Source of the DNA: Trichormus sp. ATA11-4-KO1
Lineage (GTDB): Bacteria; Cyanobacteriota; Cyanobacteriia; Cyanobacteriales; Nostocaceae
NCBI GenBank assembly: GCA_019358915.1
Contig: JAHHIM010000035.1
Span: forward strand, 1-45,386
Length of the DNA stretch: 45,386 nucleotides
Direction: 5' to 3'
The notes beneath the pieces are model-generated. The model saw nothing but the letters and a program-made list of their open reading frames with translations. It was not told the origin of the DNA and searched no databases. Positions 21,175 to 23,498 of the stretch are shown here, piece by piece. The stretch's first letter is position 1, and each line of letters opens with the position of its first letter. A program made the translations under genes and the position numbers.

Positions 21175-21406
21175 GGGGATGAGGGGGATGAGGGGGGGGA
21201 TGAGGGGGAATAATTCTTAATTGGCTTCCTCATCTTCCCCTGCTTCCTCATCTTCCCTTACGAATCAGTAATGAAATATAAAACGCCTTATGTGAGATGG
21301 GGTAGCAAAAAAGAAAGGGAAACCACAAGATAAAGGTAACGACACCAAAGCTTGAGGTCTGCCAATGAATATGGTAGACGGTTCGACGCCCGGAGATGAA
21401 TTAGCT

Positions 21407-22195
21407 CTACTTCAATCCTGATACAATTCCACCACCTCTGTAAACGGCGGGATAACTGTTTCCATACACTTCAGGGTTAAGTAGCACTTGTGCACCTACA
21501 ATCATATCTGTAGTACTGGGTGTTAATGGTGCATCACAGGCAATGCGCTGGTAGATTGCGACTCTTTGTTCATTAGCTGTTGTTATGACACTCAAGGCAA
21601 TAGTTCCATCCGATGGTGTCACAATTTCTATACCAGCAGTTGGACGACGTGTACCTAAGCTGCTAGGGGCAACTCCTGCAAGGCTCCTGCTGGCTACATC
21701 AACATAGCCAATAATTTGATGCTGAAATGAGCTTAGATAAATCGGACCTCTATGAAACTTCACTTCAGTAAAAAAGCTTTCAGGGTAAGTCTGAATATAA
21801 GTAATTGCGCCCTTTGTTGAATCGTATTCAGCTACAGTGACTGGACCTACTGCTTCTGGCACAATGTTTCTTTGTACGCCTTCGCTACTGTTTAGAGTTA
21901 CTGCTTCGCGAACTGGGGAGTAATAGGGCTTTGCATTCTTCGGGTATCGAAGGCTATCAAGAGCAAAGTTCTCAAAAGCCGTTCCCATCGTGTTAGCGTC
22001 CAACGCAAATCCCAGTCTTGATCCTCGCAATTCGATATCATTTTTCGTTAAAGAGTTGCCTAAACCAGCGCATGAGCGTGCATTAATTGTACTCTGAGGT
22101 TCTACTGCTAGTGAAGAATAACTCGCGACAACCTGAGAACCTAACATCCCAATAAGCAAAGGCGAAACAATGCGGTAATTCAGAAGCTTCAGCAT
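21407..22195 (-). CDS. Predicted secreted protein with PD-(D/E)XK-like motifs (cargo)
   Basis: 262 aa; hydrophobic N-terminus ending SLA; GTAFENFAL...VPEAV...FTEVK...HQIIGYVD. Confidence 0.7.
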   Translation of the reverse strand: MLKLLNYRIVSPLLIGMLGSQVVASYSSLAVEPQSTINARSCAGLGNSLTKNDIELRGSRLGFALDANTMGTAFENFALDSLRYPKNAKPYYSPVREAVTLNSSEGVQRNIVPEAVGPVTVAEYDSTKGAITYIQTYPESFFTEVKFHRGPIYLSSFQHQIIGYVDVASRSLAGVAPSSLGTRRPTAGIEIVTPSDGTIALSVITTANEQRVAIYQRIACDAPLTPSTTDMIVGAQVLLNPEVYGNSYPAVYRGGGIVSGLK

Positions 22196-22335
22196 CTTAT
22201 GTCTACAATTCTACAGTCAAGGCTTTTGTGATGATAAAGCAATTTGTGCCAAAACCTCTCCCGGCATTTAACACATATCGCCTAATTCAGAGCTTTCCTT
22301 TCACGCAAAGGAAGAGAACGGCTGATTGGTAGACT

Positions 22336-22746
22336 TCACTCACTCTTTTTCTTTGCTTTCAATTCTCTCAACACTTTGATCGCTCTTTCATCTTCTCTCC
22401 TAAGCTCTTCGTCTGTTTTTACTTCTGGAGCCAATTCAACCTCTTTCAATCTCTTTCTTTCTTTTTCTGCTGCTTCTCTCTCTTTTGGTGTCTTTCTTGC
22501 CATGTCACGCGCAAACGCATCGGCTTGTTCTTGCCGAGCTTTTCTCTCCATTTCTTCTATCTGCTTTAATACATTGTCAGGCAATCTAATTTCATTATTG
22601 CTTGAACCTTTGTTTGAGTTTTGTGCCATTAATTTAGCCTCGCTACTTGCTAAGGTGGTTGTGTTTGAAGAATTAGAGTGACAAAATATTACAACTGAAG
22701 CAATGGCTAAGGGCAATGCTAGCTTGCTGGACTCTAAAATCGACAT
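22336..22746 (-). CDS. Predicted secreted, highly charged helical protein (cargo)
   Basis: 136 aa; hydrophobic N-terminus, 'LMAQ' mature-start pattern, E/K/R-rich body. Confidence 0.7.
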   Translation of the reverse strand: MSILESSKLALPLAIASVVIFCHSNSSNTTTLASSEAKLMAQNSNKGSSNNEIRLPDNVLKQIEEMERKARQEQADAFARDMARKTPKEREAAEKERKRLKEVELAPEVKTDEELRREDERAIKVLRELKAKKKSE

Positions 22747-22899
22747 AGATTCTGTCCGTTTGAGGGAATGTGAGCATATTTATCATACTGCATCTATATT
22801 CTTCTGCTTAAGTGAAATTATTCAGTAGGTAAACTTTTCAAAACCTTCCAGTCTGTAACCATTGATAGGGACTTCCAAAAAATAAAATATCCCATACAA

Positions 22900-22918
22900 G
22901 ATAATGATAATCATTGTG
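22900..22918. promoter_or_regulatory. Fur-family (Fur/Zur) box-like site
   Basis: GATAATGATAATCATTGTG matches the classic Fur consensus GATAATGATAATCATTATC at 17/19. Confidence 0.5.
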
Positions 22919-23240
22919 TGGGGGATGTAAGCGGCTGCCATCGGCAGCCGCTTCCTTCCCCCTTTTGTAGTTTCTGAAGTGGTATCTAAAACTTGAGAAA
23001 TCATCTCACCCTCTCTTTGTGAGTGTATGATTTTATGTTACTTGTTTATTTCAGGCGATCGCATAGCTATAGACTTCTTGTTATCAAGGGAAAATCTGAG
23101 CAACGACATCTGTTACTCAGATTTGTTAGTGCTGTTCTCTGTCTGTAAGTAACTACATCGCCAATTATCGAAATTTCGCCAAATCTGCAAACTCAAGTTG
23201 AGCCAAAATTTCAAGTTATACTGAAGTTGACTTAAGGCGT

Positions 23241-23334
23241 ATAACGGTACATAACGATAGCCTTTTTGCTGATACCAGTCATCTACTAGCACAAAAATTG
23301 TGGTCAACAGGGTCGAACCGTCTACCATATTCAT
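23241..23334 (-). pseudogene. IS982-family transposase N-terminal remnant
   Basis: MNMVDGSTLLTTIFVLVDDWYQQKGYRYVPL (I(F/Y)xxVDD motif); similarity ends at an IS-end-like sequence at 23240. Confidence 0.75.
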
Positions 23335-23498
23335 TGGCAGACCTCAAGCTTTGGTGTCGTTACCTTTATCTTGTGGCTTCCCTTTCCTTTTTGCCACCCC
23401 ATCTCACATAGGGCGTATAAATGAATTAATTAAGCGACTGCCACTTGTCAAGAGTATTTGTTGCAAAATATTAAATAGTTACGTCTGGAGTTCAAGCT

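Follow-up and report, generated by a model that had tools for sequence, protein, structure and literature searches.

How can a piece of DNA come to be bounded on both sides by the same end of one insertion sequence (IS), and could it move as a unit in that form? The question is raised by a 2134-bp cassette in the cyanobacterium Trichormus sp. ATA11-4-KO1, which occurs once, at 21283-23416 of contig JAHHIM010000035.1, in the spacer between two genes that we take from their translations to be gcvH and gcvP. The window analyzed here is that entire contig, 45,386 nucleotides (nt) of a 5.97-Mb genome (labeled G000; L and C numbers denote extracted loci and contigs). The cassette has ATAAA on either side and is made of two inward-facing left ends of an IS982 element, a third, IS982-like end, a mosaic of foreign DNA, and two cargo genes. 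On balance, we lean towards a history in which it formed in two transposition steps and was inserted as a left/left unit by a transposase from elsewhere. At present the cassette is probably stranded.

Two left ends of one IS982 element face each other

The outer arms, at 21283-21387 and 23312-23416, are inverted copies of 105 nt with four mismatches, as was seen in a first-pass annotation made from the sequence alone; the terminal repeat of the IS itself is merely 13 bp. Each arm holds a GAGG ribosome-binding site and the MNMVDGS start of a transposase, again in keeping with that annotation, and alignment to the parent element bears out its proposal that both repeats are the same, left, end of the IS facing inward. 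Matches to the right arm were found in 65 of the 389 genomes of the family, the host counted, and the parent, which is frequent among related cyanobacteria, could be described from 29 loci, several of which hold a full 1005-bp copy. Its open reading frame (ORF) starts at nt 83 and encodes a transposase of 302 amino acids (aa), which scores 175.7 bits against NF033520, the NCBIfam model for IS982 (cut-off 130). Judged by this profile match, the parent of the arms belongs to the IS982 family, and the annotation's naming of the ends holds. Members of that family are described as about 1 kb long, with short inverted repeats and direct repeats of 2-10 bp (PMC7335449). The parent agrees in its length of about 1 kb, its ends beginning 5'-AC, its short inverted repeats and its 5-bp duplication. 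A perfect 13-mer terminal repeat is common to its left and right ends. Among 15 measurable copies, the flanking 5-bp AT-rich repeats are perfect in six, one base off in four and without a match in five, and none is longer than 5 bp. Because copies of the parent make 5-bp duplications, the length of ATAAA is typical of this IS. The two ATAAA repeats, at 21278-21282 and 23417-23421 (both + strand), flank the entire 2134 bp as annotated, and five matching flank bases would be expected by chance with a probability of about 0.0012 given the local composition.

The arms differ in how much of the IS they retain. Arm A (21283-21387, + strand), 97% identical to nt 1-105 of the parent at L061, comprises the 13-bp terminal repeat, the ribosome-binding site and transposase codons 1-7, from 21365. 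Arm B (23241-23416, - strand), 93% identical to the parent over nt 1-176, holds codons 1-31, from 23334. The annotation had read this copy into an IS982-type N-terminus (TIFVLVDDWY), which is confirmed, and the parent match extends it to nt 176 (23241). What that annotation missed is this full length of arm B, 176 nt against the 105 nt of arm A, and the third IS982-like end that arm B abuts. At all four positions that differ between the arms, arm A has the majority allele of the relatives. Both arms carry A34, present in three of 24 relatives, and G79, present in none; because the latter is shared by the arms and absent from all 24 relatives, arms A and B are, on these alleles, derived from a single IS variant.

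Sequencing reads support the structure. In run X1, possibly the source run, the flank contigs have depths of 905 and 1054 and the interior 970, and the 65 bp over which the arms do not differ are a single node with a depth of 1989, which is to say two copies. All four junctions are borne out by the contig graph and by depth; which way round the interior lies is not fixed by these contigs. Because the node stands at 1989 against 905-1054 for flanks and interior, the cassette structure is real and the arm is present twice, which answers the annotation's concern that the inverted repeat could be an assembly artefact.

The cassette itself is not an IS: seven and 31 transposase codons are kept, and no intact transposase lies between a left and a right end. 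DNA and protein searches of the assembly, from which contigs below 10 kb are absent, found no full-length IS982. The only IS982 transposase matches there are the 32-aa arm and a 41-aa distant fragment, and run X1 yielded no further IS contig at 80%. The annotated lack of an intact transposase is true of the cassette and of the whole assembly, and the full-length parent that the annotation proposed to look for genome-wide exists at 1005 bp in relatives, with no full copy in the assembly.

Other IS982 arrangements were seen alongside. One is a MITE (a miniature transposable element with inverted repeats) of IS982 type, 121 bp long with a 5-bp AATAA duplication (C36:406726-406846, L058); the same 121-bp end spacing recurs in genome G173 (C2:52874-52994). 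Lone IS982-type right ends without a partner lie at C16:35378, C36:64353 and C42:31918. A 1094-bp copy in G386 (L064:1505-2598) has nt 99-186 duplicated, near the cassette's inner break points at 105 and 176, and in G289 (C83, L073) two left ends of the parent stand in direct tandem, 168 bp apart.

A third end and a foreign mosaic lie inside the cassette

The third IS982-like end (23225-23240, - strand) agrees with the parent's right end at 13 of 16 bases, the eight terminal bases exactly, and begins precisely where the IS homology of arm B stops, at nt 176. Equally good matches are found at 24 of 11.94 million positions in the genome (2e-6 per position by chance). The polarity is nested: the unit closed by this end has its start at arm A and is joined, in turn, into another copy of the IS. 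Because the third end lies inside the cassette, the history of the cassette is, as its junctions read, a nested one. The inner part of the third end coincides with the conserved TTGACT-TAA box of an rplU promoter, and the right end of the parent itself resembles a -35 box (TTCACA-TAA against TTGACT-TAA). Two origins may account for the third end: a makeshift end that an unsampled donor carried natively, or a real end that was eroded down to a look-alike box; the bases at issue in the donor rplU promoter are the native ones following TTGACTTAA. A hybrid promoter built on the captured -35 box and directed toward gcvP is not supported: no site is predicted there, and five promoter-like sites were found where 4.0 are expected.

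The interior is a patchwork. On the left, arm A is joined to the cargo's own 3' flank through a short shared stretch (21385-21406, + strand). In genome G214 the homologous flank continues with the same 18 bases, 10 of 12 bases at the joint are IS-like, and the 19 bases that follow arm A are shown by this genome to be the cargo's own 3' flank. A fourth cryptic end at this junction was ruled out, with 8 of 16 matches to the terminal repeat and bases that are cargo flank in G214. Past the two cargo genes, the cargo's own upstream region runs through 22747-22867 (- strand) and is alignable with G214 as far as 22839. In run X3 the match to the cargo goes on to 22867, where other sequence takes over, which places the joint at the terminus of an ISAzo13-like left end. 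This end (22868-22971, + strand, 104 bp) has counterparts of 77-87% identity in other genomes; an ORF that follows such an end matches NF033519 at 3.8e-10, under the cut-off as a fragment. It holds a 20-bp GC hairpin and a near-consensus motif that we label, provisionally, as Fur-box-like. Run X1 differs from the assembly at three positions within it (22919, 22926 and 22928). Next comes the beginning, 11 codons, of a DUF2281 (vapB-like) gene (22972-23004, - strand). Several relatives have this gene in divergent orientation upstream of rplU, where the full gene matches Pfam DUF2281 and has a PIN gene downstream. The last piece, a copy of the rplU upstream region (23005-23235, + strand), ends at the conserved TTGACT(TAA) -35-like box, and is regarded as foreign because it is only 83% identical to the host's own copy (C3:111371-111587).

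The slot upstream of rplU is itself variable among relatives. In many of them (L095, L099-L101, L113, L115 and L116) it is occupied, divergently, by a toxin-antitoxin pair of DUF2281/PIN genes, to which another gene is often added; the host lacks the pair there.

A proposed two-step history

Any account of the locus starts from what is directly observed: three ends, the positions and polarity of their junctions, a foreign mosaic, a 5-bp repeat, and no helper in the assembly. In the two-step history, arm A, a lone left end in a cyanobacterial donor, would have teamed up with the rplU -35 box serving as a makeshift right end, and a deletion across short homology at the 3' flank of the cargo would have left 105 bp of the arm. 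A unit of 1958 bp (21283-23240) would have inserted at nt 176 of a sister IS copy, in the opposite orientation. In the second step both true left ends, whose 13-bp terminal repeat is also that of the normal right end, would have been used together, leaving the 3' part of the sister copy behind and duplicating ATAAA in the gcvH-gcvP spacer, with transposase supplied in trans. The first-pass annotation had proposed that the cassette moved as one non-autonomous unit. The IS982 left ends, the missing transposase, the duplication of family length and the foreign cargo fit that proposal. Joint transposition of two left ends is presumed, with a single copy, no other such pair, no empty site, and a third end inside set against it.

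Several observations weigh against the two-step history. No second copy of the cassette is found in the genome. The left end occurs at 82 places in 51 of 389 genomes, and no other facing pair within 10 kb is found among the 75 of these places that were listed, nor among the rest and the high-copy genomes when rechecked with a shorter pattern; draft assemblies break at multicopy ISs, and this absence is no proof. The annotation's empty site with a single ATAAA was not seen, the spacer of the sole same-genus genome being divergent over its first ~110 bp. The four differences between the arms all fall within nt 6-40 of arm B and all run from AT to GC, with nt 41-105 identical, a pattern that the model leaves unexplained. 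Native rplU promoters, 17 in number, match the right end at only 7-9 of 16 bases and none has its terminal five, as would suit a real end that has eroded. The putative inner target, ATAAC at 23241-23245, lends the history little support, 26% of IS 5-mers being equally AT-rich. Finally, the IS982 review treats the transposition mechanism of the family as unresolved (PMC7335449).

A parallel in the same genome counts on both sides. A genome-wide screen for long inverted pairs returned 13 distinct pairs, and in only two are the arms two-copy: the cassette and C69:1164-2116 (L126), where 207-bp perfect inverted repeats are two left ends of an ISL3 element. In the latter, a left end of ISL3 is followed by a short stretch closed by a third terminal repeat (ending at 1469) and then by the first ~650 bp of that IS, inverted; the right end of its parent was not found. 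The structure lacks cargo and a direct repeat, its flanks are unrelated, and it indicates that such a layout can arise without the clean insertion of a unit. By analogy, self-insertion gains support as a way in which left/left layouts arise, and such layouts need not be mobile units. The structure adjoins the truncated start of an IS4-type transposase and a truncated PIN-like gene.

At the insertion site, removal of the cassette with one repeat (2134+5 bp) leaves 269 bp between the gcvH stop and the RHIG codons of gcvP. This distance is 268 bp in the same-genus genome and 216-663 bp in 22 relatives with short gcvH-gcvP spacers (30 loci were given and 24 parsed, the host counted, one of them without a distance). 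The cargo without the ends, which the annotation had named as a result that would speak against it, was looked for in 40 relatives and is absent from the locus in all of them. Lineage-specific tandem repeats of short length make up the 5' half of the spacer (21175-21260; L003-L030), which is entirely unlike its counterpart in the same-genus genome, with flanking genes 99% identical.

The left/left pair may never have transposed at all. In this alternative, which we hold possible but doubtful, an ordinary left/right copy B, either empty or with the nested cargo unit, would have made the ATAAA duplication and then lost its 3' ~830 bp. The joint, for which we have a similarly tentative proposal, would be slippage between the right terminal repeat of B and the left terminal repeat of arm A, 13-bp direct repeats each preceded by ATAA. 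As the two ends share a perfect 13-mer, this deletion would yield exactly the observed sequence, another point against the two-step history. It also accords with the single copy of the cassette, with the frequent internal deletions of the parent IS (derivatives of 389, 396, 428 and 595 bp are common), and with the decay of the ISApl1-mcr-1 transposon, which loses its IS copies at short joints (PMC5821093). However, such a deletion needs one extra event, or an insertion into a 1-kb target already at the site, and no remnant of the 3' part of B was found in the genome.

A decayed composite of Tn10 type, in which two full inverted IS982 copies were moved by their outer left ends and later lost their inner parts, is improbable. 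Inverted IS pairs are the known layout of Tn5 and Tn10 (PMC2723962), the left inner junction resembles a short-homology deletion, and the 5-bp duplication fits, but the inner right end of copy B should then read ACGCC on the + strand at its left edge. Moreover, the third end points the other way and meets the IS exactly at nt 176, a result that plain deletion does not give; the polarity nearly refutes the composite. We give very little credence to an assembly artefact, or to dispersed repeats that came by chance to flank resident genes. The genome does hold some dozen further long inverted pairs within 8 kb, yet most are repeats with 12-435 matches around ordinary genes and none has a direct repeat above 4 bp, whereas the cassette contents are missing from the locus in each of 40 relatives searched, and its junctions and two-copy arm are supported by the graph and depth of the possible source run. 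Of the histories considered, the two-step one remains the one that we favor.

The cargo encodes a likely exported nuclease

The annotation's two secreted-protein ORFs stand as two ORFs with hydrophobic N-termini, a feature kept in both families. ORF262 (21407-22195, - strand) encodes a predicted secreted protein of PD-(D/E)xK nuclease fold from an unnamed family. ORF136 (22336-22746, - strand), upstream of it, encodes a charged, helical-type protein. The nuclease motif of ORF262 consists of P113-E114, E144-x-K146 and Q160. Across 30 aligned homologues, picked from 150 listed, P, K and Q are present in all 30, the first acidic site is D in 24 and E in six (ORF262 has E), and the second is E in 24 and D in six. 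The structure model is a confident one, with a predicted local distance difference test score (pLDDT) of 84. In structural comparison its best match is MspJI (Z 6.7, below 8; root-mean-square deviation 4.4; 146 residues aligned), and the top nine rows are all restriction or nicking enzymes; Foldseek against the PDB gave no match at E<=0.001. ORF262 has no match in Pfam (E<=10) or NCBIfam, falling outside the Tox-REase-7 profile (PF15649), and an Atlas lead to Tox-REase-7 (score 0.90, 126 of 256 shared features) is a lead only. It resembles Tox-REase and Mrr-like PD-(D/E)xK nucleases in its P(D/E)...(E/D)xK...Q motif, in its predicted restriction-endonuclease-like fold, and in the C-terminal place of the domain in some large extracellular proteins, where it occurs C-terminally or with FG-GAP, PA14 or RCC1 repeats (42 matches scanned). 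It differs from them in lacking a Pfam match, in its signal-like N-terminus and conserved Cys pair, in an upstream partner with its own hydrophobic N-terminus, and in having no downstream gene in the cassette. Our prediction is that ORF262 is likely to be an exported nuclease of polymorphic-toxin type.

The cargo has relatives outside the cassette. ORF262 has 17 close homologues at 50-92% identity, the named ones in Phormidesmis and Myxacorys, and 301 representatives by profile; ORF136 has 13 database matches, itself counted. The ORF136-ORF262 order is the same in Myxacorys and in G214, there without IS982 ends, and in G214 (L055:7209-8707) ORF136, a broken ORF262 and a pstS-like fragment lie between two Ser/Thr kinase genes. 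ORF136 is also found alone, which weakens a strict role for it as partner of ORF262. Among the 388 other family genomes, ORF136 is present in one and the ORF262 profile in 10, mostly distant. Pieces of cargo at 98-100% identity were found in all six other runs looked at (six studies), none bridged to an IS982 arm; these runs were chosen by shared words and show presence only. Searches for the cassette or cargo returned only IS-end pieces in plasmids (13 records) and no match in phages and viral contigs. A metagenome scan for the cassette gave only a record identical to the window, and of two scans of genome contigs, one was without any match and the other gave one Myxacorys locus.

Two features elsewhere in the genome may be added. 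A solo ORF136 homologue of 102 aa (C36:35664-35969; L124:1483-1791) has no N-terminal extension called and no nuclease gene nearby. On C68:1046-3336 there is a long array, with a period of ~71-73 bp, that resembles CRISPR (short palindromic repeats that are clustered and regularly interspaced).

Relation to known mobile elements

The junctions of this locus frame three questions for the IS982 transposase: whether two left ends are acceptable to it, whether a -35 box can serve it as an end, and whether its own copies are among its targets. One general answer, which we put forward as speculative and rather unlikely, is that it takes sigma-70 -35 boxes as makeshift ends, its right end reading alike, and that self-insertion upgrades one-ended captures to two left ends. 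This would be a two-step route to portable cassettes that spreads a secreted, so far undescribed nuclease family among soil and rock cyanobacteria, with the C69 ISL3 structure as its second trace. A second lead from the locus is a nuclease family, so far without a name, of about 300 members predicted to be exported, which is moving between cyanobacteria. The cassette, a single and probably stranded copy for which other IS families offer close precedents, makes a useful case.

Among those precedents, a typical mobile insertion cassette has what we take to be one left and one right outer end, as we assume for MIC231. Such cassettes, exemplified by MIC231 of Bacillus cereus and mic-qnrD, resemble ours in their inverted IS-type ends, cargo, absence of a transposase, target duplication and helper in trans (PMC3913671). 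Two inverted repeats, a cargo gene, a duplication and no transposase are all found here, but not a left paired with a right outer end. Our cassette further differs in being of the IS982 rather than the IS4 family, in that both outer ends are left ends with transposase starts, and in its third end, its single copy, and a mobility in trans that is only proposed. For step 1 of the two-step history, a model is ISEcp1, which we place in the IS1380 family. Its units capture neighboring genes between a true left and a makeshift right end (PMC6061673). The ISEcp1 unit keeps its transposase gene whereas the cassette has none, and this mode is not reported for IS982 in the literature covered.

The left/left layout is less new than the first-pass annotation suggested, as inverted identical outer ends are known from Tn5/Tn10 (PMC2723962) and TIME-COMP1 (PMC4133298). 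The Tn5 and Tn10 composites likewise have inverted IS copies, the same end type outermost on both sides, and a duplication; they keep whole ISs and a transposase, where our cassette keeps 105 and 176 of 1005 bp and has an inner end of nested polarity. TIME-COMP1, also ~2 kb and non-autonomous, has two opposed miniature elements around foreign DNA and 5-bp AT-rich repeats. It is of the Tn3 family, has complete two-ended 262-bp flanks and was caught transposing, in contrast to the one-ended IS stumps here. With 2134 bp in one copy, the cassette falls outside the MITEs, which are multicopy and ~30-300 bp (PMC4133298). Within the IS982 family, the PluTI unit of Photorhabdus (PMC2875022) carries nuclease cargo between non-functional IS982 remnants, for which composite or non-autonomous transposition was proposed, but has 16-bp direct repeats, two IS982 subfamilies, and restriction-modification cargo with a methylase. 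ISNsp1, an IS982 element of Nostoc and so of the same family and host group as the parent (PMC7335449, Table 1), is set apart by description only: 1028 bp, 297 aa and a 6-bp repeat against 1005 bp, 302 aa and 5 bp. That review, in the part available, describes no composite, MITE or non-autonomous derivatives, and no IS982 left/left cassette was found in the literature searched, which took in few subscription papers and no supplements. Set beside these systems, the cassette is a variant of the mobile insertion cassettes and not a new class.

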